The notes: a model not told the origin generated them from the sequence alone. A stretch of DNA of 64,000 bases from Pirellulales bacterium (GCA_963773875.1 CAVZCV010000013.1:82852-146851); one strand, 5' to 3'. Shown: positions 5,133 through 64,000, numbered from the stretch's first letter. Numbers and translations: made by a program.

Positions 5133-7746
5133 TCAGCCACGAAGCTGAGCCCGTCGTCGGCGAAATCCGCACAGCAGGAGCGCCGGCAGGCCGAGCGCGA
5201 AAATGGTAATCGCTGTCGGTTCGGGTACAGAAACAGCTGAGCCGCCGCCTTGGGCAATGACGAGATCCAGCAGGCCTTGGATGTCGCGGTTCGTCACTGT
5301 GCCGGAGGAATCGAAGTCGCCGATCGAGGCCAGCTGCACCGGGCTGAGTGCGTTCGTCGATTTGTACGCATTCAAATCGGTTAGCGCGGAAAGCATGGAC
5401 GGAATATCGGCGGCGGTTACCTGGCCGTCGCGATTCCAATCGCCCTGCAAATAGGTTTTGATCACCGACAGCGTGCCCGAGGCGTAGAGCTGCGTGGTAT
5501 CCCAACCCAGCGGGCCGCCTGGAATGGCCGGCAGCGCCAGCGACGAGAACGCACCGCTTACGGTGCCCCAGTTCAAAATATCGAATGTTTGACCAAGCTG
5601 CGGATGAAAACCATTGATCAGCGAAACTTGCAGCTTGCCGCCAAGATCGAGTTGACCGCTGGCGTTCACCTGATCGAACTGCGTGCCGGGCGTAAGTCCA
5701 CCGATCTCGATGAAGAGCGTATTGGAATCTGTAAAGGCTACGTGACCGTCGAGCGAAACAGCCGCGGGACTGTTTCCTGGACTGTATCCGCCTTCGAACA
5801 GTTTCGCGCCAGTGCCGGTGAAGGCGCCGGCTCCACTGACGTGACCGAAAAACACCGCCGTGCTGCCGGCGCTCACGCGAAACAGATCGCCATTGTGAAC
5901 GACCGGGCCGTAAAACGTGACATTGCTATTACCACTGACGATGATTTGTCCGCCAGGCAGGTGGTCCGCCGGAATTTGCGGCGGCATTGGTAACTGCGCC
6001 GAAGATATCGCTCGTGCCGAACGACACGTTCAGCCCGGCGACGTTGTTCAGCCCGCCTGCAAAATCGACTTGTGCGTTGCGGACATTGATCTGCCCTGTC
6101 GCAACCGGTTGATTGTCGATGTCGTTAATGATCGTGTTATCGACCGACGAGGTAAACCGCATCGACGTGCCGATGGCATCAATGCGATTGAAGTTCAGCA
6201 CGTTGTTGCCGACAAGGCCACTTCCGTGCAGCACGCCAAGGTTTGAAAGAAATCCGCCGCTGATTTGACCGCCAGCCAGATCGACCTCGCCGTAGTTGTA
6301 CGCGCCAAAGTTGACGGCCGCGACTCCGCCGTTCAAATTCAATTTGGCTTTATCGTTGACGTACAGGAATTCATTCACGGTCAGTTGCCCGCTGGGCTGC
6401 AAGCGCAACTCGGCTACGCCAGAAATGTTGGCGTTCAGATCCAAACTGCGGACGGTCGTCGCCGTTGATGGTCCGGTAATGACAGTGCCGTAGTCTGGAT
6501 GGATGTTCGTCGAAACAACCGCGCGCGGCTTCAATCCGAATGACCAGTTGCTGGCGGAATCCCAATTGCCGCTCGTGTTGGCGGTGTACTCATACGATTG
6601 CTGCGCGACGAATATTCCCTTGCTTGAATCGGCAAACGTGGCCTGAAATGAGATGTTGCCATTGCTGATCGCGTCGGATCCCAGCGTGATTGAACTGATT
6701 TGTTTGCCATCGAGCAGCACTGACTTGTCGATCACTCGAGTTAGTGTGCCACCGTAATTCGTATACACACCTTGCTGGGTCCCGCTACCGGTCGCCAAAA
6801 ACGCAACCGAGCCACCGCTGAACGCGAGGGCAGAGAACGAACTGAAGTTTCCCGTGCCACTGGGAATTGGCGTTGTGCCATCTGCCACCGCGTTGAGCCC
6901 GCCGATATCGGTATAGACCCCGCCTTGCGCATTGCCCTGTCCGATGAAGGCGACGTTTCCGGCGCTGACGACCTGCGCATCTGGAAAGCTGATGAAACTC
7001 CCCGTGCCGCCGGGAATGGCCGTGCTCGTGTTGGCGATCACATGCAAAGAACCGCCGGTCGTGGCATAGATTCCTTGCTGCCCACTATTGCCGGTGGCGG
7101 AAAAAGCGAGCTCGCCGCCATCGATCGATGGCCCCGTGCCGAACCCGATAAAATTTCCAGTGCCGCTGGGAACTGCCGTGTTCCGATTAGCGACAACGTT
7201 CAAGCCCCCCACAGAGCTGTAAATGCCGTCTTGCGTTGGCCCGCCACTTGTGAACGCTCCACGAAAGACAACATTGCCGCTACCATCCATCGAGGGCGAA
7301 TTGAAAGCATTAAACTGGAAGCCGGCGCTGCCGGGAACCGGCGTGGAAAAATCGGCCACGCGAACTAAATCGCTCGTATACACCCCACTTCCCGTTGGAC
7401 TGGGCGTGAACGCAATCTTGCTGCCACTAACCGTGCGCAGATTAAACCCGAGGAAATTGCCGGCGCCATCGGGGATCGGCGTGTTGGTATCGACAAGCTT
7501 GGCCAGCACGCCTCCGTTGCTCACATACGCCGCAACATAGTTGCTGGGCGAAGTCCGGGTGCCGGTTAGCGCCACGTTGAACCCATCGAGCGCCGGCGTG
7601 GTGCCAAATGCGTTAAATGTGCCGGTCACGAGCGGAACGGTAGTGTTCGTATCCGCAATTTTTGCGAAATCATAATCAACGGCCCCGCTGCGATTCGCAG
7701 CGAATAAGACGACTACTGCACAAACAAATAATTTCGCGCGACTCAT
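5133..7746 (-). CDS. PEP-CTERM-anchored surface protein with NxxGxxAF-like tandem repeats and a dockerin-like pair; reading frame broken once
   Basis: ORF 5929..7797 (real start MSRAKLFVCAVVVLFA at 7746; ~8 repeats of T.IP.GTGNF..F....GG.VAF.....GIY) continues in ORF 5133..5987 (GDWNRDGQVTAADIPSML / GDFDSSGTVTNRDIQGLLD, then VPEPTAITIFALGLPALLLCGFRRRR). The same domain order is contiguous in the paralog 7895..10294. Junction ~5965-5985 at an AAA/TTT run. Confidence 0.8.
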
Positions 7747-7894
7747 GTTGAAACTCCCAGGTTGGAATGCGGCTGCTCTTCTTCGTTCCAGGAACACAGC
7801 CGCTTAGCGCAGCAGCGTCGGCATTATTCCCGAAATTAGAGGGGGATGCAACAAGAGCCGCACGCGTTCGGACGCGAGAGAGTCTGCGAGGCAT

Positions 7895-10294: not shown

Positions 10295-10569
10295 CGCTGT
10301 TCTTGCTGGGTTACGGAGTGAGAATGCACGCGATGACACACGTTCGCGGCAATCGCATTTGGCTTTTCAATCTTCGCCGGTCGATCAAGATGTGACACTA
10401 ACCACCACAAGTCCTGGCGGCTGTGATTGCGGCAACGATTGATGTCGTTCACAGGGGTCTAACGGCCGGTGCGGTGCGATCAACTTACTGTAACGACCGA
10501 CGCAGAGCAATCTTTGCCGGCCCGGGCGCTGCTCAAATTACGTCGAAAACTACGGCGACAGCGGCCCTG

Positions 10570-10812
10570 CTAACAAATTCGGCGAAACGAGCGCCGTTGA
10601 CTCGATAAAGCAATCATAAAGAGACCGACGCACAGAAGGACAAATCCTGCAGGCTCCGGCACCGATTCAACCGTCCCGCCACCAAGACTCGCCACGTAAT
10701 CAAGCAGGCCTTGAATGTCGCCGTTGGTGACGGTTCCCGAATTATCGAAATCGCCAATTAAAGCCAATTGCGCCGCAGTTAGCGTTTTTTCTGCAGTGCA
10801 CTGCATGGGCAA
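10570..10812 (-). pseudogene. orphan 3' cassette of a PEP-CTERM/dockerin gene (second dockerin repeat plus PEP-CTERM anchor only)
   Basis: 80-aa ORF ...LTAAQLALIGDFDNSGTVTNGDIQGLLDYVASLGGGTVESVPEPAGFVLLCVGLFMIAL. Homologous to the last ~70 aa of the two upstream paralogs, but has no signal peptide or passenger domain. Abuts the mfd 5' region. Confidence 0.7.
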
Positions 10813-10856
10813 TCGGCGTTTTTTCGTAAACCATTTCTGCCTATAATTCTCCGCAC

Positions 10857-13800
10857 ATGACCGAGGCCGTTGCCCAGCTGGGTTCGGCTCGGCTCGAAGA
10901 GCTGGCCGAGCGTTTGGATGCGCAAGAAGGCTACGCCGAAGTGATCGCCAGTCTGCAGGCCGGACATGGCGGGGCGCTGGGCGGAGTCTGGGGGTCGAGC
11001 TGCGCGCTTATCGCCGCGAATCTGGCGCGGCAGTTGGTGAGTCGGTGAGTGGCCGGCGGGTGAGTCGGGAGCGCCGAAGAACGCAACTCCATCGAAACGT
11101 CGACGGGCGCGAACTGCGATCCCAAGCCGCGCCGGTGATGCAGATGAGGACGCGGAACAACGAACCTTGGTTGTTGTATGTCCAAGGGACGGCGACGTGG
11201 ACGATTTTTGGGATGACCTCAAGGTCTTTGCACCGCAATTGTTTTCCGGCGACCGGTTGGAGAAATTTCCCGCTTGGGAATCGGCGCCCGGCTGAGAGCG
11301 GCCTGCAAGATGAAGCGCATGGCGAGCGTTTGCGGGTCATCAAACGGTTTGTAAGCCGGGCGCCGCAAGTCGTCGTCACCAGCATTCAGGCGCTGTTGCA
11401 GGCGGTGCCGCCGCGGGAAGTGCTGCAAGCCAACACGCGCCGTTTGAAAGTGGGCGACGACATCGATCCCAACGCCTTGTTGCGCTGGCTCGCAGAAAAT
11501 GGGTTTCAAAATACGACGGCTGTGGAACTGCCAGGCGAGTTTTCGCCACGCGGCGGCATTATCGACGTGTTCGCGGCCGACTGGCTGCATCCGGTGCGGA
11601 TCGAGCTGTTTGGCGACACGATTGAATCGATTCGCAGTTTCGAAGTTAGCACGCAGCGAAGCGTGGAGACACTTGGCGAAATCGATATTACGGCACTCAC
11701 CAAAGAACACGTAACCAGCGGCGCTGGAAAAGGAATCAACCATTTCGCAGCCCATTTGCCGCCGCACTCCTGGTTCTTGTTGATCGAGCCGCACGAGATG
11801 CAAGAAGAAGCTCGCCACTATCGACAGCGATTGGAGCGGCCGCAGGATGTGCACGATATCGACGATACGCTGGCCAGCATTTATCGCTTCCCTTCTGTCA
11901 CGGCGGCCGCGGTGGCCAGCGGCTCGATGGAAGCGGAATGCCAGTTGCGCATTGAAAGCGTGGAACGCTTCAGCGGCGACATCAGCAAAGTTCGCGATGA
12001 GCTCGACACGGTTGGTTTGGGCTACGAAGTGCATCTGATTTGTCCAACGGAAGCGGAGGTCGATCGGCTGCGCGAAATCTTTGGCACCACCAAACTCGCC
12101 CAGGCTGGCCGTCTGCATTTTCCAATTGGCCGTTTGCAGGCCGGCTTTCGACTAGTGAGCGAGCGGATTGTGCTGGTTTCGAGCGCGGAACTGTTTCATC
12201 GCACAGAATTGAATCGCCCCGCGCGGCGACGATTGGGCCGCGTGATCGATAGCTTTCTCGAACTCCGCGAAGGCGATTACGTCGTGCACCTTTCGCACGG
12301 CATCGGCCGGTATCGCGGCCTGAAACTGCTCGAAAAAAACGGCGCAGTGGAAGAGCATCTGGAACTCGAGTTCCACGGCAACACTCGAATTTTCGTGCCG
12401 GCCTCGAACATCGATTTGGTGCAGAAATACATCGGCGGCAGCAAATCGCGGCCCAGCCTGGCGCGAATTGGCGGACGGATGTGGCAGCGGCAAAAAGAAG
12501 CAGCCGCTCGGGCAGTGGTCGATCTCGCATCCGACATGCTCTCCGTTCAAGCGATGCGCGCCATGCGGCCGGGCATCGAGTTTCGGGCCGATTCGGAGTG
12601 GCAGCGCGAATTTGATGCCGCATTTCCGTACCGCGAAACGCCGGACCAACTCACCGCAATCGCCGCCATCAAGCACGATATGCAACTGCCGCGGCCGATG
12701 GATCGGTTGCTCTGCGGCGATGTTGGCTACGGCAAAACAGAGCTCGCCATTCGCGCGGCGTTTAAAGCCGTTGACGCCGGATTTCAGGTGGCCGTGCTGG
12801 TGCCGACCACGATTCTTGCGGAACAGCATCATCGCACGTTCATCCAACGCATGGCAGAGTTTCCGTTCCGCATCGATGTGCTCAGCCGTTTCGCCACCGA
12901 TAAGCAGCAGCGTGAAACCATTAAAGGTTTGATCGATGGCTCGGTGGACATCGTCATCGGCACGCACCGACTGGCACAAGCCGATGTGAATTTCCACAAC
13001 CTCGGTCTTTTGATTATCGATGAAGAACAGCGATTCGGCGTCGATGTCAAAGAACGGCTTAAAGCGCTGCGGGCCACGGTCGACATCCTCACGATGACGG
13101 CAACGCCTATTCCGCGCACCCTGCATATGTCGCTTCTCGGATTGCGAGATATTTCCAATTTGGAAACCGCGCCCGAGGACCGCATTGCCGTGGAAACCCG
13201 CGTCACGCGGTTCGATGAGGAACTTATTCGCCACGGCATCCTGCGCGAGCTGAACCGCAACGGCCAGGTGTTCTTCGTTCACAACCGCGTGAACGATATT
13301 CAACTGCTCGCGTACAAGCTGCAGCGCATCGTTCCGGACGCTCGTATTCGCATTGGTCACGGGCAGATGCCAGAAAGCCAGCTTGAGCAAGTCATGTTCG
13401 ATTTTGTGAATCATAAATTTGACATCCTGCTGGCTACGACGATTGTGGAAAGCGGACTCGACATTCCCAACGCGAACACCATTTTCATCGACGAAGCCGA
13501 TCGTTACGGCCTGGCCGATTTGCATCAACTGCGCGGTCGCGTCGGCCGGTACAAACATCGCGCCTACTGTTATCTGCTGCTTGACCAGAACAAATATCTT
13601 TCGACCAATTCCGCCAAGCGATTACGGGCCATCGAAGAATTCAGCGATATGGGCGCCGGCTTTGCCATTGCAATGCGCGATCTGGAAATTCGCGGCGCCG
13701 GCAACATTCTTGGCACGCAGCAAAGCGGACATATTGCGACCGTCGGTTATGAGCTGTATTGCGAGCTGCTCGAACAAGCGGTCCGCAAGGCCAAACAATT

Positions 13801-14239: not shown

Positions 14240-14315
14240 CGGGCTCGCTATCATTCCGCCCCCGTCGAGCGGTTCTTTTCGATCTGACCTTCGCCATCCA
14301 TCTATCTGGGCGCAC

Positions 14316-16136
14316 GTGGCTCGCACTTTTTACTCTATCGTGCTGTGCCTGACGTTGGGACTTTTGGCCACCATGTGGCTGCGTCCTGGAATTGCGCAAG
14401 ATATCATCGATTTTGCTCACAGCGTGGTTCGAGCGCAATCGCCCGATCCGCAATCGGTTCCGCAGGCAGTACCGACGGGAAATATTCCGTACAACAATAT
14501 TCCTGGCCCGCCGGCACAACCGCGCCGGTGACTCGGCCCGTTACGTGGCCGGGCACGCCTGTCGATTCTTACAGCGACAATGTGAACGGCGGCGGAAATA
14601 ACGCGGGAGTTGTTTCTTCGTACGGCATGACACCGCCGGCGGCTCGACCGGGCGTGACCGTATGGGATCCGAATTCGCGCAGCAATGTGCCAGCACCATC
14701 GACCGATGAATCGCGTGGGCCGCCGGGCGCGTTCTTGCCTCACGCCACACCAGATTCCGCTGCGCTGTATCCGCCCAACAATGCTCCGCCTGCCGCCACT
14801 CAGTTCGCGCAGATTCCGGGCGGCCAACCGGCGATGCAGCTTGCCCAGTTGCCCGGCGCAGGCGGATTCGCCGGGACTGCGCCGCAACCGCAATTCGACG
14901 GGCAAGCGCCGACGAACGGGCAGCCGCCACCCTATGGCCAAACTGCGCCAAATGGACCGATGCCGCAGATGAACCCGATCCGGCCGCAAGCAGCATCTGG
15001 ATATCCCACAACATCGGATCCAGCCGCGCCGATCTATCCCACCACGTCGCCAACCGCACCGATTGAATCACCCCTCCCAACCGCCCCTCAACCTCAACCA
15101 ACCGCCGGACTGGGCGGTGCAAACCAACTTCAACGGCACGAACGTTCAAGTTTTGCCAAGCGAAGCAAAAGAGGTTCCCGATTCGCAAATCATCGCCAAG
15201 GTGGGTACGGAAACAATTTTGCGAAGCGACGTCAAAGCGATGGCCTTCGCGGTGCTGCAGCAGAAAAAATTCGACGTACCGCCCGATCAGTTGCCGCAGT
15301 TTTTGGAAATGGCTGAACGGCCGTTGCTCAAGCAACTTGTCGAAATGAAGCTCGTTTATAACGACGCCATACACAGCATTCCTGCTGAAGGCATGAAGAA
15401 AATCCAAGCCGGCATTGGCGACGACTTCGACAAGAAGGAACTGCCGAAGCTGCTCACGAACAACGGTGTTAGCACGCGTCAAGAGTTGGAAGCGAAGCTG
15501 CGCGAGCGCGGCAGTTCCATTGAATGGGAACGCCGTATCTTCTTTGAAAAAAACTTGTACGGCGGTTGGATGAGCCAGAAAATCAAGCGCGATGAAGAAA
15601 TCGCTGCCGCGGAAATCCTGAGCTATTACACCCAGCACGCCGCCGACTACGAATTCCCCGCCGAAGCGAAGTGGGAAGAGTTGATGGTCAGCTTCAGCCG
15701 GTATCCCGATAAACAGGCCGCAACGAATGCGATTGTCGAAATGGGCAATGCCGTCATGCAGGGTGCGCCATTTGCGGAAGTCGCCAAGGCGCGCTCCGAC
15801 GGCATTACCGCCGCCAGTGGCGGCGCTTACGATTTCACCACGAAAGGCAGCCTCGCCTCAAAGGAATTGGATGCCAATGTGTTCGGGCTGCCCGTGGGAA
15901 GCCTGAGTCGAATCATCGAGTCGGAACGCGGCTACCACATCATCCGGGTCACTGAGCGCAAAGAGGCCGGACGCAAATCGTTTGAAGACATGCAGACCGA
16001 AATCAAAAAGAAGTTGAAAGATCAGAACGTCGAACGGCAAGTGAAAACATATCTTGATGAATTGCGCAAGAAGACGCCGGTGTGGACGATCTATGACGAC
16101 AAGCCTGGCGGTTTGGAGGGTCCTGCGAAGGAGTGA
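14316..16136 (+). CDS. SurA-like periplasmic chaperone / parvulin-type peptidyl-prolyl isomerase with P/Q-rich linker; apparently read in frames 0 -> 2 -> 0
   Basis: Signal peptide ORF 14316..14531 (MARTFYSIVLCLTLGLLATMWLRPGIAQD). P/Q-rich ORF in frame 2 (14345..15316). SurA-N plus PpiC domain in ORF 15063..16136 (…GGAYDFTTKGSLASKELDANVFGLPVGSLSRIIESERGYHIIRVTERKE). The PPIase ORF alone lacks any signal peptide. Confidence 0.75.
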
Positions 16137-16986: not shown

Positions 16987-18277
16987 ATGGGCGAGCAAGC
17001 CAAACTGCTCTACAACGGTCGGGATCTGGAACTGCCAGTTATCACGGGCACCGAGCACGAGAACGCCATCGATATTTCCAAGCTGCGCAGCAACGGGCTT
17101 GATCACGATGGACGATGGCTACGTCAACACGGGCTCCGTCGTCAGCCGAATCACTTTCCTGGACGGCGAGCAAGGTATCTTGCGCTATCGTGGTTATCCA
17201 ATTGAAGTGCTGGCCGAGCGCAGCGATTTTGTCGAAACAAGCTACTTGCTGATCTACGGCGAGTTGCCGAGCCCGACGCAGCTCGACTATTTCCGCACCT
17301 CGCTGCAGCGCCACACGATGCTGCACGAAGAGATGAAATCGTTTTACGACGGCTTTCCGCGCGACGCCCATCCGATGGCCATTCTTTCGAGCGTCGTGGG
17401 CGCACTGTCCACGTTCTATCAAGATTCGCTTGACCCGCGCGACGCACGCCAGGTGGAAGTTTCGGTCCACCGACTGATGGCCAAGCTGCCCACGATTGCC
17501 GCCTACAGCTACAAAAAATCGACGGGCCAACCATTCATGTATCCTCGGAACGATTTGGACTACGCACAGAACTTTCTGTATTTGATGTTCGGCGTGCCAT
17601 GTGAAGAGTACGTTGTCGACCCCGACTTTGTCGAAGCTCTGAATCTGTTGTTCATTGTGCATGCCGATCACGAACAGAACTGCAGCACGAGCACCGTGCG
17701 CATGGTCGGATCGAGCGACGCAAATCTGTTTGCTTCGATTTCCGCTGGAATTTGTGCCCTCTGGGGTCCTCTGCATGGCGGGGCAAACCAGGCGTGCGTC
17801 GAAATGCTCGAAGACATTCGCGCCGACGGCGGCAACGTGAAGAAGTACGTCGAGCTGGCCAAGAAAAAAGATTCCGGCTTCCGCCTGATGGGTTTCGGCC
17901 ACCGCGTTTACAAAAATTTCGATCCGCGGGCCACCATCATCAAACGTTGCTGCGATAAGCTCTTGGCAAAGATGAAAATACGGGATCCGATTTTCGATAT
18001 TGCGCAGGAGCTCGAGGACGCCGCATTGAAAGACGACTATTTCATCGAACGCAAGCTATACCCCAACGTCGATTTCTACAGCGGCGTCGTCTACCGCGCG
18101 ATGAACATTCCGGTCAACATGTTCACTGTGCTGTTTGCCATCGGTCGCCTGCCAGGTTGGATTGCCCACTGGATGGAAATGCACACGAGCCCCTCGGGGA
18201 AGAAAATTGCCCGACCGCGGCAGATTTACAATGGCGCGCTCAAGCGCGATTACGTGCCGCTGGAAAAGCGAGGCTGA
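16987..18277 (+). CDS. gltA: citrate synthase (type II, GltA); one frame break near codon 36
   Basis: N-terminus MGEQAKLLYNGRDLELPVITGTEHENAIDISKLRS in frame 1 (ATG 16987). The rest, …TGLITMDDGYVNTGSVVSRITFLDGEQGILRYRGYPIE…HADHEQNCSTSTVR…GFGHRVYKNFDPRA…, is in frame 2 to 18277. Junction ~17085-17098. Confidence 0.92.
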
Positions 18278-20632: not shown

Positions 20633-21378
20633 CTAGCCACCGTTGGAAGACGGCGCGGAAGGCGTCGCAGAAGTTGACGATGCAGGTGAGTAGCGCACCC
20701 AATTGGAACCGTTGTAATACAGCCAATTGTTGCTAGTTGTCCAATACCACCACTGGCCGTTTTGATTTACCATCCGCCAATTGTATGCAGTGTTGGCTGC
20801 GGCGTTGGTGGTGCCCATTGATGGTTGGTTGATTTGAACGTTGGCGGAAGAGCCGCTGCTGTGGTTGGGCATCACAATCGTGCTGGCGCCCGGTGTGATG
20901 GTAGATTGTCCCGGCGCGTTTGCCGCGCCGGTTCGGCCGGGCGTGATGCCGGTAATGGCGCCTCTTGGGATGGTCGAAATGCCTTGCGACAAGTTCGGTT
21001 GAGCGATGCTGCTGCCGGGGAATGTCGACATCCCTTGCGACATATTCGGCTGAGCCAAATTGCTGCCGGGGAACGTCGACATGCCTCGCGACATATTTGG
21101 TTGCGCAATGCCAGTTCCAGGAGTGGTCGACATTCCCAGGGACGAATTCGCTTGGGCCATTCCGCTTCCCGGTGCAGTCGACATGCCTAGTGATGAGTTC
21201 GCTTGGGCCATACCGCTGCCAATTGCCGATCCGGAACTACCAGTGGCAGGCGTATTTTGAATGCGTAGATATCCGTTGCGTGGACCGCGGCCTGAGACGC
21301 CACCGCCACCTTGAGCCGTGCGCTAACCGTCCAGGCAATGCATGTTCCAATGGCAACAAGAGTGATGAGCACTTTCAT
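20633..21378 (-). CDS. secreted repeat protein (5 x 17-aa tandem repeats plus W/Y/N-rich C-terminal motif); frame break just after the signal peptide
   Basis: Signal peptide MKVLITLVAIGTCIAWTVSA (ATG 21378) is in one frame. The adjoining frame continues QGGGGVSGRGPRNGYLRIQNTPATGSSGSAIGSG then (MAQANSSLGMSTAPGSG)x5 variants and …NQNGQWWYWTTSNNWLYYNGSNWVRY. Junction ~21312-21326. Confidence 0.7.
20957..21211 (-). repeat. coding tandem repeat, 5 x 51 nt
   Basis: Units atggcccaagcgaactcatcactaggcatgtcgactgcaccgggaagcgga and four diverged copies, each encoding A-Q-(A/P)-N-x-S-x-G-(M/I)-S-T-x-P-(G/R)-x-x. Confidence 0.85.
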
Positions 21379-23905: not shown

Positions 23906-26900
23906 TACTTCTTCCCTTCATCGCCGCGCTCTTCCCAAACTTTTTTCTTCGCTTTCAGAAGTCGGCTCGTGTAGTCCTCGCCTTCCTTCGGCGCCTCTTT
24001 TTCCGGGGCCATTCCAGACGGTGCTGCCGAAGGTCTTGACGTCGGCTTTCCGCCGGCGATTTCGCCCATGGTGCCGATGTCTGGTGCGGGCGCATCGGGC
24101 GCGGGCTCGAACCGGGCGCCGGCACGCCGCTCATCAATTTGCGCCGCAATGGCCGCCTTTCGGCTGCGCAGCGCTCAATGACTTCGACCTGCGGAGGCGC
24201 CGGAGCGCGCCGCAATATCTTATCGCGAGCTCGTGCCAAGAGCGGCGGTAGCCAATCGAAACTGACGTGCACGCGCCGGACAAATACATCGCCGAAGAAC
24301 AAACACGCGGCCGCCAGCATCAACAGATGCCAAATATCCTGGCTGCTCGTGGCCTTCGGCAAATCGCGCCGATAGGGATTGAACTGCAACAACATTCCCT
24401 GCAGGATTGCTTCCCACTTATTTTGTGACGGATCCGTCGGCACGTATTCAATCAGCTTACCCGGCTCCGTCTCGCCTTTGGCCTGTAAGCTCGCCAATCC
24501 ATGAAGCAGTCCTTGGTTCGGTTCGCGATCCACATACTCCGCGGAGTACGGCACGTTAACGCCGGAGAGAATCGGCGCCATACCGGCACCAGGACTCAGC
24601 ATCAAGAAATAGCTGCCCGATTGCGGCGAATCAAACTCGCCTACGTACCGGCCCGGCGCGGTCTGACGAATTTTCAAGTCGATCGGCTTCATATCTGGAC
24701 CGACCACGCTTCCGCTCATTGCGAGAAAATTCAGAAACTCGTCGTTTTTATCCAATGCGGTCACCGTGACTCGAACTTTGCCGTTCTCGAGATCGGTGGT
24801 GACCGTGAACTTGCCCTGATCGCCGCTCGGGCGCATCGACCAACGTGTAATTTGGCTGTAGAGCTTGTCGTAGTTCGACCAGTCGTTCCAATCGGCGGCC
24901 CAACGCTTGCCGGCATCGGTCGTCATTGCGACGGTCTTTCCCAGTCCATAACTCCAGCCGGCAAGAATCGTGCGGTTCGCTTCCGTCGAAGCCTTCGGGC
25001 CTTCCGGCGAAATCATCGCCACTTCCACGAGCGGGTTTTCTTTCTTGTTCGTTAGCACGTAGCCTTTGATGGGAGGCAGCGCGTCGATGCCCTTCAGCAT
25101 TTCGTGGGGGAACGTCACTTGCGGGCGGAAACCGTCTTTGTTCTCAAAAATGAGCGGCTGCGAAACCACCCGGGCTTCTTTTTGGAAAATTCGCGGCAGC
25201 GCATTTTGCGATTTTGGCTCGTAGAACTTTCCGCCGGTGGAGAGCGCAATTTGCTGCATCTTATTACGCTCAGTTTGACCATGGCCGCCGAAGAGACCTA
25301 TCGCCACGGTCGTGATTTTGATTTTCGCCTGCCGATATCCATTGATCAGCGCAGCCGTCGGGCGCCCGGATCGCCATCGCTAATCAGAATGACGTGCTTC
25401 ACCGCCACTTCGCCCGGCAAGTTGTTCATATCGTTCAAAATCTGGCGGAGCGAACTGTCGAAGCCGGGCATATCGCCTGGAACCATGCGGTCGATGCGGG
25501 CTTTCATACGGTTGCGATTCGCTTCATCGCCGATTTTCGCCACGCCGTTTCCGCCGGACGTCCACAGCCACTGATCGGTACCTTCCCAGTGAATTACGCC
25601 GCAGTAATCTTGTGCGCCCAGCGTGGCGAGCGCGGCATCGGCAATTTTCTTTTGCCAGTGATTGCCGTCCGCCATTTCCGAGGCGTGCATCAGCATGGCT
25701 AGCGCGCCGATGGGAACGACCTGTTTGTTCTTGATTTGAAAGTCGACCGGCATCGCTTCTTCCAAATCGGTTCCCGTCCATCCTCCGGCTCCAAAACTGT
25801 TGGGGCCGCCAAGCATTACAAGGCCGGAGCCCATTTGCTGTGTATTGCGGACAAGCATTTTGATTTGGGCTTCGCTGAAATCTTCGCGCGGCACATTGGC
25901 AAGAATGACGGTGTCGAACGGTTGCAGCTCTGCCAGCGAAGTGAACAGCTCATCGCTCGACTTCACCGTCACTTGCAGATTTTCTTTGCGCAGTGCATCG
26001 ACGAGATGATCGAATTCGCCCTTGTTTTCCGAGTCTTCGATCAAGAGCACCTGCCCCTGTCCGCGAACATGGGTAAAAGTGGTGGCGCGATTGTTCGCCG
26101 CCACCGGATCTTGTAACGGATCGTCCGGGATGAACCGTGCTTCATACGTATAAAAGTCGGGCGAATCGATTTCCTCGCGGAGTTTGAATACCCGCTTGCC
26201 GGGTTCCAGCGTGACCGGTTCGCGAGCCAGGACCTTTTCGGAATCGCCCGTTTTGCGTGTGACTTCAATCTGGCCTTTCACCGTGCCATCTGATTTATTT
26301 GTCGCGATCGCGTTGTTGTTCAGCACAACGCGCACATCGAACGGCTGACCGCGATTGACATCGGGCGGTATTTCAACGTGCTCCACAGCCACGTCGGCTT
26401 TTGCCTGATAACGAATGGGCACCACATCGATGCCCACTCCGGCTTCGGCCATCGAACGGGCCTGCTCCATCGCATTTCCGAGATTTTCGTTGCCATCGGT
26501 GACAATGACCACGCGCTTGGCGGCATCTTCCGGAAACGATGCCATGGCGAGTTTGAGCGCGCCGGCGATGTTGGTATGATCGGTCTCGATCCGCGTTTCC
26601 GGCGTGCGGGCAATTTGAATATCGTCATCAAACGGCGGATGTTCCAGCGCGGCATCCCGGCCAAACACAATCACCCCAGCGCGGTCTTCAACGTCTTTGT
26701 AACGATGCTTTTTGATATCGGCGTTGATCCAATCGACCATCGCCCGCCGCTGCTCTTCCGGAATGCTGACCGATTCATCGAGCACGTAGATGACGGTCAG
26801 CTTCTCGCTAGTTTTGACTAATCTGATTTCAGCGAGCGACAACACGATGAGCGTCAACACTGCAGTTCGCAGCGCCAGCACAAACCACCGCCGCCAGGGG

Positions 26901-36582: not shown

Positions 36583-38039
36583 ATGGCAGAATTCAAACTT
36601 CCCGAGCTGGGCGAAAACATTGAGTCGGCCGATATCGTGTCGGTCTTGGTCAACGAAGGCGATGTCGTCAAAGCGCAACAGGATGTTATCGAGATTGAAA
36701 CCGACAAGGCCGTCATCGCCGTGCCCTCAGATGTCGCCGGCAAGGTGACCAAAATCCACGTCGCCCGTGGGCAATCGATCAAGCCCGGTCAGGTTGTCAT
36801 GAGCATCGACGCTGCGGCTGCGGGTGCGCGCCGGCGGCGAAGTCATCAGGCGGGGCAGCCGCCAAGCAACCGGCAGCCTCGCAAAAACAAGCCGCAACAA
36901 CAAAGTCGCCCGCTGCAGCCAAGACGCCGGCAGCGAAGGCAACCCATACCGCTGCGAAGCCGGCAGCCGCAGCGCCAGCACCACCGAAAAAAGTTTCTGC
37001 CGAAAAGTCAGCGCCAGCGAAAACGGCAACCGAGCGCGATCGCACCGCGGCGGCTGAGCGAAGCGACAACGGGCACGTCGCAGAAGCCGAAACTCGGCAG
37101 ACGACTGACGAACCGGATTCGAATGATCAATCCCCGACGATAGCACCAGCTGGTCCCGCCGTTCGACGCCTGGCTCGTGAGCTCGGAGTCAGCCTCGCGC
37201 GAGTTCGCGGCAGCGGCCCAGATGGCCGCATCACTCGCGAAGACGTGATTGATGCTGTGCGGCATGCCAACGCAGTCGTGGCTTCGTCCTCGGCTCATGG
37301 CCAGCTAACTGGCCAGGAAGAACAAGACGCATTCGGCATCGTCCGCCGGGAAACGATGTCGAAAATCCGGCGAACGATCGCCACGAACATGGTTCGCTCG
37401 GCCACGACGATTCCGCACCTCACGAATTTCGACGATGCCGATATCACCGAACTGGAACGGCTGCGGAAAGAAAGCGCAGCGGTATATGCCGATTCGGGCA
37501 TCAAACTCACATCCCTGGCGTTCGTGCTCAAGGCAATTGCGTCGGCGCTAAAACTGCATCCCACGCTGAACGCGTCGGTCGATATGGAGGCGGGCGAAAT
37601 TGTTTACAAACAGTACGTCAACTTGGGTGTGGCCGTCGATACGGACCGCGGGTTGATTGTGCCCGTGCTGCGGAATGTTGATACGCTTTCCATCCCGCAG
37701 ATCGCGCAGGGCGTGCAAACACTGGCGGAAAAAGTTCGCGATGGCAAGCAGACCTTGGAAGATTTACGCGGCGGCACTTTCACCATTAGCAACTTGGGTG
37801 CCGTCGGCGGGCAATATTCCACCCCGATCATCAATCATCCCGAAGTGGCGATTCTGCTTGTCGGCCGCTCGCGCAAAATTCCGGCTGTGGTGGCCGACGA
37901 CAAGATTGAAGCTCGGCTCACAATGCCGCTAAGTCTTTCCTACGACCACCGAATCGTCGATGGCGCCGCCGCTTCACGATTCTTGAACGAGGTGATTGGT
38001 TATTTGGAATCGCCAGGCCGCTTGCTTTTGGCGCCATGA
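36583..38039 (+). CDS. aceF: dihydrolipoamide acetyltransferase (PDH E2); one frame break after the lipoyl domain
   Basis: Lipoyl domain MAEFKLPELGENIESADIVSVLVNEGDVVKAQQDVIEIETDKAVIAVP… in frame 1. From ~36822 frame 0 is open and encodes an Ala/Pro linker, a subunit-binding domain (APAGPAVRRLARELGVSLARVRGSGPDGRITREDV) and the catalytic domain (…LSLSYDHRIVDGAAASRFL…) to 38039. Confidence 0.92.
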
Positions 38040-44107: not shown

Positions 44108-45601
44108 CTACACCTGGCTCGCTGTCGGCACTTCAAAGCCCTTGCGGTATTCTCGCGAGAGCATGTCGTTCGCCTTCGAATTGCCGGAGAACGAAACGGC
44201 CTTGGGGTCGAACTTCAAGAACTCGCCACATTGGAACTGGGTCTTGTCGTCGAGCTTGACTTTATTCGACTCCAAGTGCTCCACCGTTCGATCGAGCGTC
44301 TTCTGCGGATCGTCAGCCATCTTCACGCCCTTGAGCCGATCGGCAACATCCTTTGTCGCCATTTTGCTCCCCAAGCGATAGCTGATGTTGCCCAAGTGGC
44401 AAAGCGCACTGCTGAGGAAACCTTCTTGAATATCGGCATTCAAATCTTCCTTCTTCCGGCTGCGCACGGCCTTGATAAAGTTGCCGAAGTGATCGCCGCC
44501 GCCTTCGAAACTCTTGATGAGCTTGCCGTCTTTATCGAATGCTTTGCCGGACGTGTAGCTTGTCAGTACGAGATAGCCGTCGGCACATTCGAAAATATTG
44601 CCGACTTTGGCTCCCTTGAGCGCATCGGTCGCCAGGCCGCGCAGTTTCAAAGACGAGTGTCTTTGGACCGTAATCGAACACGCATACTTCGGTGTTCGCC
44701 GTTTGGCCCGCATCTTCGTATCCGAAACGGCCGCCATAGGTGATGACGCCATTGGCGAGCTCGTTGACGCCCAATCCCCAACGGGCAATGTCCATTTGGT
44801 GGATGCCTTGATTGCCGAGATCGCCGTTTCCGGTTTCCCACATCCAGTGCCAATCGTAATGCACCGGTGTGTCTTTCTTGACCCGGGATACGGCGACTTG
44901 CCATCATGATTCGGCGCCGGGCCGCACCACAGATCGTAATCGATATTCGCTGGTACCTCGTACCAGCCGGCTTTGGGCCGATGGAATCGCGACCTTTGTA
45001 GCACAAGTCCACGCGCCACCTTGATCTCGCCAATTTTTCCGGAGCGCAGGAACTCCATTGCTTCCAGGTTCGCCTTGTGCGAACGGCACTGCGTGCCGGT
45101 TTGGCAAATTTTGTTGTACTTGCGGGCGGTCTCCACCATCCGCTGCCCTTCGCTGATGTTGTGGCAAACCGGTTTTTCCACATACACATCTTTGCCGGCC
45201 TTCATCGCCCAAATGGCGGCCAACGCGTGCCAGTGATTCGGCATGGCAATGCTGACGCAGTCGACCGACTTGTCTTCGAGCGCCTTGCGAATGTCTTGAT
45301 AGAATGTCGGACGTCGTCCGCCTTGTTTCTTGGCGGTTTCATCGCAGCGTTTTTCGCCGACATCTTTATCGGCATCGCAAATCGCCACGACTTCCGTATC
45401 GGTCTTGCCGGCAAATCCGCCCAAGTGCGAAGTGCCACGATCGTGCACGCCGCAAACCAACACGCCCAGTTTGTCGTTCGCGCTCTTGGTGACCGTTTCG
45501 CCCGTTGCAGCAAACAGTTTCGGCGCCGAGCCCGCCGTGGCAGCAACCGCGGCCGCCAACATGGAATCCGTCAAAAATTGACGACGAGAGAAATCCGACA
45601 T
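44108..45601 (-). CDS. Tat-signal Gfo/Idh/MocA-family oxidoreductase; about four frame breaks
   Basis: MSDFSRRQFLTDSMLAAAVAATAGS (twin-arginine). Rossmann part intact. The centre reads correctly only in ORF 44532..44864 (HYDWHWMWETGNGDLGNQGIHQMDIARWGLG…VFDYGPKTLVFET), returning to the main frame at ~44640. A further short out-of-frame stretch lies at ~44966-45007. Confidence 0.85.
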   Translation of the reverse strand: MSDFSRRQFLTDSMLAAAVAATAGSAPKLFAATGETVTKSANDKLGVLVCGVHDRGTSHLGGFAGKTDTEVVAICDADKDVGEKRCDETAKKQGGRRPTFYQDIRKALEDKSVDCVSIAMPNHWHALAAIWAMKAGKDVYVEKPVCHNISEGQRMVETARKYNKICQTGTQCRSHKANLEAMEFLRSGKIGEIKVARGLVLQRSRFHRPKAGWYEVPANIDYDLWCGPAPNHDGKSPYPGSRKTHRCITIGTGCGKPETAISAIKASTKWTLPVGDWASTSSPMASSPMAAVSDTKMRAKRRTPKYACSITVQRHSSLKLRGLATDALKGAKVGNIFECADGYLVLTSYTSGKAFDKDGKLIKSFEGGGDHFGNFIKAVRSRKKEDLNADIQEGFLSSALCHLGNISYRLGSKMATKDVADRLKGVKMADDPQKTLDRTVEHLESNKVKLDDKTQFQCGEFLKFDPKAVSFSGNSKANDMLSREYRKGFEVPTASQV

Positions 45602-45780: not shown

Positions 45781-46575
45781 TCACCCGTAACGTCGAAGAA
45801 CGTGGTCAAACAGCCCGGGGAACAGCCGGCTTAGTCGCACGAACCAGCGGGCGCGCAATCCTGGAATCAGTTCGCGGCGGCCGGAGTCAATGGCTCGCAC
45901 AATTCGCTGTGCGGCCCCATCGGAGGGCATCGCCATGCGAGTGGTCCACGGCAAATCTCCCCGTTGCTCAACGAGATGATCCCAAAAATCGGTCTTCGTC
46001 GGGCCAGGGCTGATCAGCAGCACATCGATCCCTTGCGGGGCAAGTTCCACGCGAATCGATTCGTTCCACCCGCGCAGGGCGAATTTGCTTGCGCAGTAGG
46101 CGCTATTTTGCGGCGTAGCCCGATGGCCGAGAATTGAGCCGATATTGACGATGATGGGCTGCCGGCCGGCTTTTAACAACGGCAGCGCGGCGCGAGTCAG
46201 TTCGATCGGGGCGAAGAAATTGGTCTCGAGCACCTCGCGAAATCGCTGGGAGATTCGACTCATCGAATCGACCGATCGCTCCGACGCCCGCATTGTTGAC
46301 AAGAATATCGAGCCCACCGAAAGCCGAGTTTGCGGCATCGATCAAGACCTGCCGCGCTGTCGGGACTCGTAACATCGCCTACAACAATTTCGACGCGGCC
46401 GGCCTTATTGCCAAGTCGTGCTATCTCGTCGGCAACGTCACGGAGTTTCTGCTCGCGGCGCGCGAACAAAACGACGGCTGCCCCTTGACTGCGCCAATTC
46501 GATCGAAATTGCACGCCCAAGTCCGCCGGAAGCGCCGGTAATCAGCGCACGAGATCCGGCGATCGAACGGCGCAT
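45781..46575 (-). pseudogene. short-chain dehydrogenase/reductase (SDR) with three frame breaks in ~800 nt
   Basis: Four pieces in three frames: MRRSIAGSRALITGASGGLGRAISIELAQ (ATG 46575) / QGAAVVLFARREQKLRDVADEI…VVGDVTSP / TARQVLIDAANSAFGGLDILVNNAGVGAIGRFDES / …FREVLETNFFAP…SAYCASKFALRGW… to 45781. TGxxxGxG, NNAG and YxxxK motifs are all present. Confidence 0.8.
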
Positions 46576-49507: not shown

Positions 49508-49988
49508 TCACACCGGCTTGTTGGGATCCTTGATCTGCCCGGCTGCGTCATCCATCACGTCGAATCGCTTCTTCTCGGTACCGCCCATCTTGATATTCGG
49601 ACTGCGCGAGCCCGGCCTTTTCTAGCAGCGACTTACCAAAAATGCTATTGGCCGGCTCTTTATCAGCCGGCGGCGGACCAATGGCGCCAAGTTCAGCCGG
49701 CGAGTAGCGAACTTCGTACTCATGTTTGGCCACTGAAAGCGTATCGCCGGGATCAAGTCGCCGCTCCTGAAAACGCACTCCGTTGACCTTCAGCCCGTTG
49801 CGACTGCCCAGGTCTTTGACGTACCAATAACCATCCTGGATCGATAGCTGGCAATGGTGGGCAGAAACGTTTGCGAACCGCAGCACAATGTCGCAACTTT
49901 CACGGCGGCCAATCATCAATTCTCGCCGCCGAAGTGGAATCGGATCGCCGCCACCCACCGGAATCAATTCGCCAAATTCATCAGCCAC
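49508..49988 (-). CDS. FHA-domain protein; C-terminal frame break
   Basis: GTG 49988 after aagagg: VADEFGELIPVGGGDPIPLRRRELMIGRRESCDIVLRFANVSAHHCQLSIQDGYWYVKDLGSRNGLKVNG… After …SLLEKAGL the plausible continuation (SRSPNIKMGGTEKKRFDVMDDAAGQIKDPNKPV*, stop 49508-49510) is in another frame; the annotated ORF stops at 49548. Confidence 0.75.
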
Positions 49989-50119
49989 GGCACACCTCTT
50001 GGAAACGGAGCAGCGCACGCCGGCGCTTGCTCCGTGTTTGCTGTTCCCATTACCATGCACTTCGTCGCAATTCGCATAACTTTGAATCTATTCAGACCCC
50101 ACCCAGGTGGTCAATCGAG

Positions 50120-55005: not shown

Positions 55006-55203
55006 TCGGCAAAGTTTTGTTGACCGGGGAATTCGCTTGACAGATGGCCGCGGCCAGACTCTATTTTCTTCCACTTTGCGTGTTAAACTTTCAGTGGCCT
55101 CATGTGCCGACGATTGGCTCGATCGGCAATTCAAGTTTCCCGCCTGCGTGTCGTGCCTTTATCAAGCAAAGGCATTCTTCCATCCATCAGGAGTCGCTTC
55201 AGC

Positions 55204-57391: not shown

Positions 57392-57397
57392 AACTTC

Positions 57398-58927: not shown

Positions 58928-59689
58928 ATGATATCCACACGCCAAGAATGTCGGCAAGACCTGCAGCGGCGAATTCGCCAGCTGGAATGTGCTCACCTGA
59001 CCAGTTTGGAACGAGTGTCCACTGGCTGCGAGGCGCTCGATAAATTGTTGCCTGGCAAGGGTTTTCACCGCGGCGCCCTGGTCGAATGGCTGGCCGCACC
59101 GGGGAGCGGCGCGGCGGGTTTGGCCCTGCTGGCGGCCCGAGAAGCTTGCCGCGAAGGAGACACTTTGGTGGTGATCGACGAAGCGCGGCGATTTTATCCG
59201 CTGGCCGCAGCCGGCCTGGGCATTGATTTGGCACGCCTAGTGATTGTGTGTCCGGCGAGCAAAAAAGATTCGCTCTGGGCTGTGCATCAATCGCTGGGCT
59301 GCCAGGGCGTCGGGGCGGTGGTCGCCTGGCCGGAAAAGCTCGACGATCGCGCGTTTCGCCGCATCCAACTGGCCGCCGAACGCGGTCGCAGCCTGGGATT
59401 TTTGCTCCGCCCCACCGCCGCCCGTGGCCAACCCACGTGGTCGGAAATTCAATTGCTCGTGACGGCGCTGCCCTCATGTAGCACGTTTTCCACCCTTCAA
59501 TCGACTCACACCGCCCGTCGTCTGCGGATCGAACTCCTTCGTTCGCGCAGCGGTCACACAGGAACCTCCGTGGAACTGGAATTCGACGATGAACACGGCG
59601 TCCTCAAAAAAATCGACACAGCGCACGCTCTGCCTTTGGCTCCCCCATTGGCCGCTCGATCGGCTGGCCGCCACTCGTCCGGAGCTTAA
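58928..59689 (+). CDS. imuA: translesion-synthesis-associated protein ImuA (RecA/SulA-like)
   Basis: …LERVSTGCEALDKLLPGKGFHRGALVEWLAAPGSGAAGLALL…LVVIDEARRFYP… The ORF end overlaps the imuB start by 101 nt (an A7 run at 59606-59612 lies in the overlap). Confidence 0.8.
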   Translation: MISTRQECRQDLQRRIRQLECAHLTSLERVSTGCEALDKLLPGKGFHRGALVEWLAAPGSGAAGLALLAAREACREGDTLVVIDEARRFYPLAAAGLGIDLARLVIVCPASKKDSLWAVHQSLGCQGVGAVVAWPEKLDDRAFRRIQLAAERGRSLGFLLRPTAARGQPTWSEIQLLVTALPSCSTFSTLQSTHTARRLRIELLRSRSGHTGTSVELEFDDEHGVLKKIDTAHALPLAPPLAARSAGRHSSGA

Positions 59690-61239
59690 GGGGCGCGAAG
59701 TGGCACTGTATGCCGCTGACCGCCGCGGGCTGTTGCGCATCTCGGCCTGCTCCGGCCGGCATGGCATGACGATCGGCATGCCTTTGGCGGAAGCTACGGC
59801 GCTCGCCAATGCGCATTTCGAACCGCACGATCCACTGGCCGATCAAGCGGCCCTGGTGCAACTGGCCGCCTGGTGCGAGCAGTTCAGTCCGCTGGTCGGC
59901 ATCGAAGCGCCGGATAATTTGCTGCTCGACGTGACGGGCTTGGCGCCACTGTTTGGCAGCGAACAAGCGCTCGTCGAGCAAGTGGCTCGCGCTTTTGGCC
60001 GACTCGGCCTGCGAACTCGCATCGCCCTGGCCGATACGATCGGCGACCGCACTATGGGCGACTGTCGCACATTTTGAAAATGATCTACCTGTCGTCATTT
60101 CGCCGGGGGAAATGTGCGCAGCACTTGCTGACTTGCCGCTGGCTGCCTTGCGATTGCCGAACAACATCGTCGAAATTCTGGCGGAACTGGGCATTGAACA
60201 AATCGAACAACTGCTGGCCGTGCCGCGTGATGCCTTGGCGGCGCGCTTCGATCCGATCTTGCTCGAGCGCGTCGATCAAGCGCTCGGCGCCGCCTCCGAG
60301 AAAATCTGTTCGCATCGTCCGCCGCCGGAATTCTCCAGCGGCGTGCGGTTGGAGTTTCCGCTGGCCGGCCGCGCGGAACTGGAACATGTGCTGGCCGCGT
60401 TACTGCACAAGATCGGCGAACTCTTGACGCCGCGTCAGCAAGGCGCGATTCAACTGCAGATCGAATTGGACTGCGAAGCCGGTGAGCCAGTTCAATTTGT
60501 GGTGGGGCTTTATCGGGCCAGTGCCAATGCGAAACACCTGTTGGAGCTGGCGAAATTGCAGCTCGATCGGTTGCGGCTGCCGGGTCCGGTGATCGGCGTT
60601 CGAATTTCCGTGTTAACTTCGGCCCCATTGGCCAACTGGCAGCAAGAGTTGTTCGATGAGAAATCGCATCGCGAAAATGCACGGCAAGTGGCGCTGTTGG
60701 TCGATCGGTTGAGCAATCGATTGGGCCGACAGTCGGTCGTCCGTGCCGTGCCGCTGGCGGAAGCCCAACCGGAGTTCGCTTTCCGCTACGAACCGCTGGC
60801 TGGCATGGCAACCGCCAACAGCTCCTCTCGGGTGCCACTGGCTCTGCCAGTGTTTGGGCCAAAAAGTGTTGTCTCAAAGTCTGCTCGCCGAAACACTGGC
60901 AGAGCCAGTGGCACGCAGCGAAAAACTACTGCCTCTCTTACCTTAATGCCTCAAAAAGAAACAACACATAAACCTCGGCCGCTGAAACTCGAGCCGGAGC
61001 CGATTCCGCTGGAGGTCGTCTCCGTCGTTCCCCACGGGCCGCCGATCCAGTTTCATTGGCACGGCCAGCAACAACGGATCGCCCGGGCTTGGGGGCCGGA
61101 GCGGATCGAAACCGGCTGGTGGCGCGGCCGCTATGTGCAGCGCGATTATTACCGTGTCGAAACCACGACAGCAGCCCGGTTCTGGCTCTTCCGGCGCCTG
61201 ATCGACGAAAAGTGGTTTTTACACGGGATATTCGCGTAG
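59589..61239 (+). CDS. imuB: Y-family polymerase-like protein ImuB; one frame break
   Basis: MNTASSKKSTQRTLCLWLPHWPLDRL…RIALADTIG (ORF 59589..60077) continues as …ATALWATVAHFENDLPVVISPGE…ERIETGWWRG…DYYRVETTTAARFWLFR… in ORF 59953..61239. Junction ~60038-60046. Confidence 0.85.
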
Positions 61240-61587: not shown

Positions 61588-61736
61588 GTGAATCGTGTGC
61601 GCCGCGAACGCAGATGGTTTTTGTGGTGGGAAACGGACTCGATCGCCGCCGCTCCGCTTCGGCAGCACTCCGCGGATCGCGGCTAAACATATTTCCACGC
61701 CTCTACTCAACTGACAACGGACAATTGCTGCTTCCC

Positions 61737-64000
61737 ATGCCTGACCAACCTGAAAGCAAACGACGACGCATCACGGCTTCCCCGCGGCAAGCGGCCACGG
61801 GGGGCTATGCGGAGCTGCATGCGAAAACGAATTTCTCGTTTCTTGAAGGGACTTCGCATCCCGATGAGCTCGTTTGCCGGGCCGCTGAACTCGGTTATCA
61901 GGCGCTGGCCGTGACCGATCGCAACACGCTGGCCGGCGTATGCGGGCCCACGCGGCGGCAAAGGAAGTTGGGCTCAAGCTATTGATCGGCGCGGAAATCA
62001 CGCCGCTCGATGCCCCGCCGGTCGTGCTATTGGCGACCGATCGCCAAGCCTATGGCCGACTGTCGCGATTGATTACGCTCGGCCGCCGCAACGCCCCCAA
62101 AGGCGAATGCCGGCTGACGTTCGACAATGTGGCCGAGCATGCCGAAGGGTTGATTGCGTGCGTCGTTGGAAGCGGACATTACGATGTCATCTCCCAATAT
62201 CGCGCAGCCTTCGCCAATCGCTGTTATCTGCTCGCCGAATTGCACTGTGGGCCGAACGACGAGCGCGAATTGGCAGAGCGAATCGCGCTGGCGAAGCAAA
62301 CTCGCGTGCCGCTGGTGGCGGCGAACGACGTGCACTTTCATCATCCCAGCCGCCGGGCATTGGCCGACGTGCTGTGTTGCGTTCGCGATGGCTGCACGAT
62401 TACCGAAGCCGGCGAGCGACTGTTTCCCAATGCTGCGCGGCATTTGAAATCGCCCCAGGAGATGCGCGCACTTTTCTGGCAAGCACCCGAGGCGGTGCAT
62501 CGCACGCTCGAAATTGCCGACCTCTGCACGTTCTCGCTCGACGAGTTGCGTTACGAGTATCCGGAAGAACTGGCTCCGGCCGGCGAGACGCCGCTGGAGT
62601 ATCTCACGCGACTCACCTGGCAAGGTGCTGCAAATCGTTATCCCGGCGGCGTGCCGAGCAAAGTGCGGAAGCTCTTGGAACACGAACTCAAGCTCATCGC
62701 CGAGCTACGGTACGAAGCGTATTTCCTCACGGTATGGGATTTGGTCGAGTTTGCCCGCGGACGAGGCATTTTGTGCCAGGGTCGCGGTTCGGCGGCGAAT
62801 TCCGCGGTGTGTTTTTGTTTGGGCATTACGTCGGTCGATCCCGATCGGATGGATGTGCTGTTCGAACGCTTCGTGAGCCGCGAGCGGAATGAAGTGCCGG
62901 ATATCGATGTCGATTTCGAGCACGAGCGGCGCGAGGAAGTGCTGCAATATGTGTACGACAAGTACGGCCGTGAGCGAGCCGGCATGACGGCGGAAGTGAT
63001 TACTTACCGGCCGCGTTCGGCAGTGCGCGATGTGGGCAAGGCGCTGGGGCTTTCGCTTGATCGGGTCGATACGCTGGCCAAAACACTCGACAACGGCGGC
63101 ATGAAGCAACTCGTGGAACGTTTTCCGCTGGCCGGCTTGGATAGCGAATCGCAAGTCGGGCGGCAACTGCTGGGTTTGGTTCGCGAGCTGCTCGGCTTTC
63201 CGCGGCATTTGGGGCAGCATGTCGGCGGCATGGTGATGACCCAAGGTCTACTGTGCGAACTGGTGCCGATTGAAAACGCGGCGATGGAAGGCCGTACGGT
63301 CATCGAGTGGGACAAAGACGATCTGGATGAGCTGGGCATTTTGAAAGTCGATTGCCTTTCGCTCGGCATGCTCACCGCGATTCACAAATGTTTTGATCTG
63401 GTCGAGCAGCATCATGGGCGTGCGCTCACACTGGCCAGCATTCCGGAAGGCGATGTCGGCGTGTACGAAATGATTTGCCGCGCCGACACGATGGGCGTAT
63501 TTCAAATTGAAAGCCGCGCTCAAATGAGCATGCTGCCCCGGCTGCGGCCGCGCGAGTTTTACGACATTGTCATTCAAGTGGCGATCGTGCGGCCTGGGCC
63601 AATTCAAGGCGATATGGTGCATCCGTATTTGCGGCGGCGGGCGGGCGAGGAAGAAATCACATATCCGAATGAAGAAATTCGCAACGTGCTGAAAAAGACG
63701 CTCGGCGTGCCGCTGTTTCAAGAACAGGCCATGCAGCTGGCCGTGGTGGCCGCAGGCTTCACGCCGGGCGAAGCCGACCAGTTGCGACGGGCGATGGCGG
63801 CCTGGCGCCGGCCGGGCATTATCGATAGCTTTCGCACCAAGCTGATGGATGGCATGCGGGCCAAAGGACTAAAGCCCGAGTTTGCCGAGCGGCTATTCAA
63901 AGAAATTCGCGGCTTCGGCGAGTACGGATTCCCGGAATCGCACGCGGCGAGCTTTGCGCTGTTGGCATATGTTTCGGCCTGGCTCAAGCATCACTACCCC
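61737..64000 (+). CDS. dnaE2: error-prone DNA polymerase DnaE2 (5' ~755 codons; runs off the window); one frame break
   Basis: ATG 61737: [11 protein letters not shown]…[45 protein letters not shown] (frame 0, stop at 61985). It continues in frame 2 from ~61940: [19 protein letters not shown]…[21 protein letters not shown]…PDIDVDFEH…[11 protein letters not shown]…VAIVRPGP… open to nt 64000 (not in the ORF track because there is no stop). Confidence 0.9.

Follow-up and report, generated by a model that had tools for sequence, protein, structure and literature searches.

The window analysed here is a 64,000-nt stretch of one strand of a contig from a Pirellulales bacterium (GCA_963773875.1 CAVZCV010000013.1:82852-146851), in which a series of conserved genes can be read along their whole length only by changing reading frame within the gene. 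Its G+C content is 53-61 %, and the closest counterparts of its proteins belong to Pirellulales (Planctomycetota). The first-pass annotation had claimed at least 20 frame breaks in at least 12 genes, and 19 of these 20 junctions were verified by frameshift-aware alignment or by hidden Markov model (HMM) coordinates, in or a few nucleotides off the ranges originally given. The net signs correspond to 12 apparent insertions and seven deletions, with one deletion best read as a 2-nt gap, and the density of breaks is ~0.36 per kb across 5.9-62 kb. Core genes are among those broken, namely the citrate synthase gene gltA, the gene of the pyruvate dehydrogenase (PDH) E2 component aceF, and mfd.

Junctions were checked with our own local protein-versus-DNA aligner, which permits frame jumps of 1 and 2 nt and was run with orthologues, or otherwise by HMM coordinates. 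The references were taken from a syntenic JGI contig (loci L001 and L106), from related genome loci (L082-L098 and L107) and from database homologues; those of the vWA/BatA-GATase1-like protein comprised four full-length sequences (~1010 aa) and one 879-aa partial sequence. Each break is given as the interval between the last and the first identical residues flanking the jump, with coordinates counted over the whole stretch (Table 1). This alignment, a check that the earlier annotation had itself proposed, recovered every junction that had a usable reference, none more than a few bases away from its proposed place.

Table 1. Position, strand and nature of the frame breaks in the window, including the candidate zone in a secreted repeat protein.
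Feature	Position (nt)	Strand	Description
PEP-CTERM/DUF7453 surface protein	5966..5971	-	1 extra nt; gene ~5136-7803; aligned with the 7898-10366 paralogue of the window and two paralogues from L082
mfd N-terminus	11041..11045	+	net +1, in a 121-nt lineage-specific insert with GGTGAGTCGG-like repeats; from ORF (open reading frame) logic
mfd	11292..11294	+	one extra T: GGC-T-GAG; DNA alignment of 7 genomes
SurA-like PPIase	14513..14528	+	1 nt missing; gene ~14313-16133
SurA-like PPIase, second break	15091..15093	+	1 extra nt
Citrate synthase gltA	17086..17093	+	2 nt short relative to L082 and L096; gene ~16987-18274
Secreted repeat protein	21190..21322	-	candidate zone for a break, if the signal peptide belongs to the repeat body 20636-21322
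vWA/BatA-GATase1-like protein, near C-terminus	24168..24173	-	1 nt missing; gene 23908-27004; five homologues
vWA/BatA-GATase1-like protein, between vWA and GATase1-like halves	25361..25364	-	1 nt missing
aceF	36825..36828	+	1 nt missing; gene 36583-38036; just past the lipoyl domain, where the Ala/Pro linker begins
Gfo/Idh/MocA, break 4	44641..44646	-	1 extra nt; ORF frame restored after a 77-aa out-of-frame stretch
Gfo/Idh/MocA, break 3	44885..44888	-	1 nt missing
Gfo/Idh/MocA, break 2	44971..44974	-	1 nt missing; frame restored after 11 aa
Gfo/Idh/MocA, break 1	45006..45008	-	1 extra nt; gene 44111-45601
SDR, break 3	46248..46250	-	1 extra nt
SDR, break 2	46363..46365	-	extra C: CCC run, CC in L107
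SDR, break 1	46487..46492	-	1 extra nt; gene 45787-46575
FHA-domain protein	49597..49613	-	1 extra nt; gene ~49514-50060; DNA alignment puts the extra base in the GGG run 49611-49613
imuB	60044..60046	+	1 extra nt; gene ~59685-61236
dnaE2	61937..61941	+	1 nt missing; gene starts near 61800 and runs past the window end

Domain matches from Pfam and NCBIfam separate the lipoyl domain of aceF from its E3-binding and catalytic domains, which lie in a different frame, and spread adh_short positions 18-64, 65-100 and 98-193 of the SDR gene over three frames. The PEP-CTERM protein carries Pfam DUF7453 upstream and PEP-CTERM downstream in different frames, the IMS domain of imuB is out of frame with the remaining protein, and gltA retains a complete Pfam Citrate_synt domain downstream of its break. 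Within the SurA-like gene, codon-usage log-likelihood prefers the homology frame for the middle segment. The N-terminal part of Mfd changes from frame 3 (Mfd residues 11-71) to frame 1 (residues 79-115), and stop codons limit a single shift to the interval given in Table 1; at the second mfd junction, all four relatives whose aligned stretch extends to the site have GGCGAG. The best homologue of ImuB lies on a contig without dnaE2, and the dnaE2 break therefore rests on HMM coordinates (NF004225 positions 5-51 in one frame, 43-758 in the next) together with direct reading of the sequence. Of the 80 loci obtained by scanning metagenomes around 53.5-55 kb, none has synteny extending to the FHA, SDR, imuB or dnaE2 genes. 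Most relatives lack the mfd insert (11025-11166, plus strand), and L082 has part of it. The insert opens with three GGTGAGT-like repeats and has the first mfd break at its 5' edge; its product would be a linker of ~40 aa, specific to the lineage, that follows the D1a motif.

The Gfo/Idh/MocA gene contains four breaks arranged as two compensating pairs, +1/-1 and -1/+1, which keep an ORF of 497 codons open at the length of the orthologue with 88 codons out of frame. The successive segments are 66/91/60/75/62 % identical to the orthologue, and the two enclosed segments of 11 and 77 aa reach their 91 % and 75 % in the other frame. Codon usage scores +28 for the homology frame and -22 for the open ORF frame. 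A single tblastn high-scoring segment pair covering residues 1-497 at 53 % identity had made this gene appear intact, an assignment that was overturned by the frameshift-aware alignment (66 %, four shifts); a single pair of this kind can thus hide compensated frameshifts. This slightly unusual case, in which compensating errors leave a wrong but open ORF, escapes gene callers and length-ratio checks as well, and would pass as an intact 497-aa protein.

Other genes of the window are undisturbed. No frameshift was found in aceE, lpd, hflX, rsgA or the gene of the 1133-aa YXWGXW protein, all of which had been described as intact before, and frameshift-aware alignment revealed no breaks beyond the listed ones in the window genes that have references. 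Several ORFs of the window have no reference, and wherever Pfam matched them the domain matches are full-length. Apparent extra frameshifts at 22038/22124, 55190-55200 and 53676/54925 were discarded, since each of them either precedes a start codon or falls at the end of a reference that had been cut arbitrarily.

Sequence conservation is equal on either side of every break, as illustrated by the SDR segments (76/78/76/80 %), and the 10 genes that were corrected contain no in-frame stop codon. These observations bear on the reading that the indels are real and recent, the contig being faithful and the lineage losing genes by pseudogenisation, e.g. in a mutator or host-restricted population. 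The breaks are truly present in the sequence, the neighbouring accessory genes Gfo and SDR, in which they are clustered, are possibly dispensable, and two of the affected genes, imuB and dnaE2, encode error-prone polymerase functions that are often dispensable. The window also resembles pseudogenes of reductive evolution in having many frameshifted genes in a short stretch. Unlike those, however, it has no nonsense codons, larger deletions or drop of conservation after any break, the damage extends to citrate synthase, PDH E2 and Mfd in core metabolism and other central functions, and the 88 scrambled residues of the Gfo protein stay conserved in the other frame. The earlier annotation had left room for some genuine pseudogenes, of which no positive sign was seen in any broken gene. 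Together with the comparison to relatives given next, this makes gene decay a highly unlikely account.

The genomes nearest to the window by Mfd (78-87 % identity) are metagenome-assembled genomes (MAGs) named 'MFD....bin...', with Flye-style contig names. Six of the seven related MFD MAGs carry frameshifts in mfd, 1-7 each and at differing sites (range 0-7), whereas none was found in the seven non-MFD genomes, which comprise two isolates, four other MAGs and the reference MAG L084. More generally, the orthologues of the affected genes are unbroken in isolate genomes and non-MFD MAGs, while relatives assembled from like data are broken differently in the same genes. The hflX, Gfo and pseudouridine synthase genes are split in the closest relative. 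Two sister MFD MAGs show 4 and at least 6 breaks in aceE, a gene that is clean in the window. Because the breaks differ among MFD MAGs and are absent from non-MFD genomes, frame breakage is a property of such assemblies and not of the lineage. It is likewise unlike reductive evolution that the breaks are not common to the relatives.

Two further observations were made in these relatives. One conserved mfd site, GCTGCGCGCTGG, carries deletions of 1-2 nt in three independent MAGs (L082:9590-9600, L083:9840-9842 and L098:9836-9839), and is present in full in the window and three other relatives, which suggests that errors recur at this GCGCGC repeat as at a hotspot. In the two sister MAGs (L109:407-3398 and L110:1307-3432), gene calling divides aceE, which encodes PDH E1, into at least four fragments, and many E1 and E2 entries of the window's lineage in the protein database are truncated as a result.

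The same comparison bears on programmed recoding, by which ribosomal frameshifting or transcriptional slippage would yield full-length proteins from some of the broken genes. Bacterial precedents are known in prfB, dnaX and the transposases of insertion sequences (IS), which share with the window a one-base frame change inside a gene, and aceF is broken in two related MAGs too. However, the aceF site is not conserved: it falls at residue 81 in the window and at residues 185 and 78 in the two relatives, the one at residue 78 with the opposite sign. None of the 12 affected, mutually unrelated genes is a known recoded gene, and their orthologues are single-frame in short-read assemblies and isolates. 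Unlike the programmed cases, the window sites show no slippery or stimulatory signals: an XXXYYYZ heptamer occurs within 15 nt of only 3 of 19 sites, there are no A/T runs and no run of 5 or more, and the shifts go in both directions (+1 and -1) with one 2-nt gap in addition. Recoding can accordingly be regarded as next to negligible.

Sequence context was analysed statistically for the 18 localised breaks. The breaks had been described as often lying at short homopolymers, which did not hold: 8 of the 18 touch a run of at least 3, compared to 6.8 expected (P = 0.37), none of these runs is longer than 3, and there are no runs of 5 or more near the breaks. By contrast, an unbiased scan of all 136 strand-collapsed tetramers ranked CCGG first, with 8 breaks observed against 1.65 expected (Bonferroni P = 0.007), and GCGC second, with 8 observed against 1.94 expected (Bonferroni P = 0.020). 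One or the other tetramer is touched by 13 of the 18 breaks, as compared to 3.4 expected, and no enrichment was seen for GATC, CCWGG or GGCC. The replication set, consisting of 30 independent frameshifts found in relatives, is again enriched in GCGC (16 of 30, 4.0 expected, P < 0.0005), but not in CCGG (3 of 30, 3.6 expected). In L098 (MAG MFD00822.bin.2.181), three of the seven mfd frameshifts (10429-12458) adjoin TGGCC rather than GCGC or CCGG, which hints at genome-specific error motifs.

A context beside two palindromic tetramers is a technical signature and is not expected of mutation under selection; under gene decay, moreover, the association of indels with CCGG and GCGC would have no mutational rationale. 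A variant of the biological reading would let many real and recent frameshift alleles of the population arise preferentially at CCGG and GCGC, e.g. when methylated or restriction-nicked sites undergo error-prone repair, with the central genes rescued by compensating shifts like those of the Gfo gene or by recoding; we consider this most improbable. Among technical causes, a motif shared across genomes together with motifs specific to single genomes would be expected if each organism's methyltransferases disturb base-calling.

Two reports (PMC11610603, PMC11610573) describe nanopore read errors induced by bacterial DNA modification, and the window errors are alike in lying at short palindromic motifs typical of restriction-modification methyltransferases, partly genome-specific. 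They are unlike them in being indels, since only frame-breaking errors were sought here, and methylation of the motifs is a conjecture in our case. The scanned ORFs of the window yielded no cytosine methyltransferase.

The breaks are also unevenly distributed, as had been remarked earlier: 7 of them fall within 2 kb (44.6-46.5 kb), a departure from uniform placement with P = 0.0004. The window has 578 GCGC and 479 CCGG sites, of which only 1-2 % are affected, and read depth must therefore matter too. Locally low or mixed coverage may reasonably be supposed to lie behind the cluster at 44.6-46.5 kb. In the relatives, the interval between the Gfo and SDR genes (window 44.1-46.6 kb, L106:11095-14412, L107:10919-16366) varies in content, with two Gfo paralogues in the JGI contig, a 1241-aa CARDB/CLIPPER gene in the closest MAG and a single Gfo gene in the window. 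The interval in which errors cluster most densely is thus also a structurally variable one.

An artefact could also arise with no base modification involved, from low coverage or collapsed strain mixtures, with CCGG and GCGC marking a context weakness of the base-caller or polisher. The strong local clustering accords with this version, as does the position of the cluster where relatives carry a second Gfo paralogue or the CARDB gene, and the enrichment of GCGC in several different MAGs may point to a general weakness of the model. On the other hand, CCGG enrichment is specific to the window (8/18 as against 3/30 in relatives), and L098 has its own context at 3/7 sites; CCGG in the window and TGGCC in L098 suggest organism-specific causes, such as the methyltransferases of each genome. 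We hold a modification-free origin to be a possibility of some weight, though short of even.

Altogether, the breaks are very probably consensus indel errors in a contig assembled from long-read metagenome data, with the genes intact in the organism, and the artefact is probably dependent on context or methylation. Assembly indel error had already been put forward as the parsimonious reading, and it is now supported by the equal conservation, the lack of in-frame stops in the corrected genes, the central genes affected, the unshared breaks and the motif context. The MFD MAGs belong to the Microflora Danica long-read catalogue, which was built from nanopore-only metagenomes by Flye assembly with one round of Medaka polishing (PMC12313526). 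Judging by the titles and source tags of its relatives, the window contig is most likely nanopore-only as well; its called fragments P0006, P0121 and P0241 bear the same NCBI+ENA source signature as the MFD MAGs. Nanopore bins below ~40-fold coverage require short-read polishing, and indels fragment their gene calls (Sereika et al. 2022, PMC9262707, from the same group as the catalogue).

We propose that base-calling and polishing would mis-size the sequence at particular contexts, mostly by 1 nt and in one case by 2 nt, concentrated beside CCGG and GCGC rather than homopolymers. These contexts would probably be modified-cytosine sites of the organism's own methyltransferases, at which the consensus may have failed to override the errors for want of read depth or because of a mixed local population.

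Several points weigh against this proposal. The motif hypothesis arose after the contexts had been viewed, and it is the scan of tetramers and the independent breaks of the replication set that lend it credibility. Nanopore errors linked to methylation have reportedly been described mainly as substitutions or mismatches, and an indel signature of methylation at CCGG and GCGC is what we infer for this window. A weakness of the caller or polisher at the motif, independent of methylation, could have the same outcome. Finally, the mixture of 12 insertions and 7 deletions fits no single simple error mode.

Compared to the indels described for nanopore-only genomes and MAGs (PMC9262707, PMC12313526), those of the window are alike in that single-base indels fragment conserved genes, and the closest relatives, which come from that catalogue, share the defect. 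They are different in that the residual indels of that literature are mainly linked to homopolymers, whereas the window is enriched at CCGG and GCGC instead. The window thus represents the familiar frameshift problem of long-read-only MAGs, slightly unusual in its motif signature in place of homopolymers.

The remaining junction concerns a secreted repeat protein at 21.2-21.3 kb, where the earlier annotation had placed it at 21312-21326. An ATG near 21376 is preceded by GGGAGG, and this Shine-Dalgarno sequence and a signal peptide occupy one frame, whereas the repeat body occupies another, in which the first start codon lies within a repeat unit. Because of this disagreement of frames, a break within the candidate zone of Table 1 is plausible. 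The protein has no homologue in any fetched locus and no NCBIfam or Pfam match, and the codon-usage test is flat between the frames.

Beside the broken genes, the window contains an IS200-like Y1 transposase gene (4572-5024, plus strand; full-length Pfam match) directly upstream of the PEP-CTERM gene pair; the Y1_Tnp gene of the closest relative stands elsewhere (L107:2294-2866). The two genes of this pair (5136-7803 and 7898-10366, minus strand) are paralogues in tandem, each for a large PEP-CTERM/dockerin-like surface protein, and L082 has the same tandem pair. The only tRNA gene of the window encodes tRNA-Arg (anticodon TCG; 19319-19394, plus strand).

The practical consequences are already visible in public data. 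At least 11 genes come out split or truncated when the window contig is annotated automatically, and the fragmentation that had been foreseen is borne out by a public protein collection, which already includes fragments of aceF (264 aa), SDR (185 aa) and the vWA protein (552 aa) called on this sequence, on a 202,452-nt contig in NCBI and ENA. Calls of pathways such as the tricarboxylic acid cycle and pyruvate dehydrogenase, and pseudogene counts, would be wrong if taken from such MAGs. The finding is biologically not a real feature of the organism, and its value is mainly that of a warning for annotation. Nevertheless, the link to CCGG and GCGC offers a concrete target for re-polishing, and if methylation is the cause, the breaks would carry indirect information on the specificities of the organism's methyltransferases.

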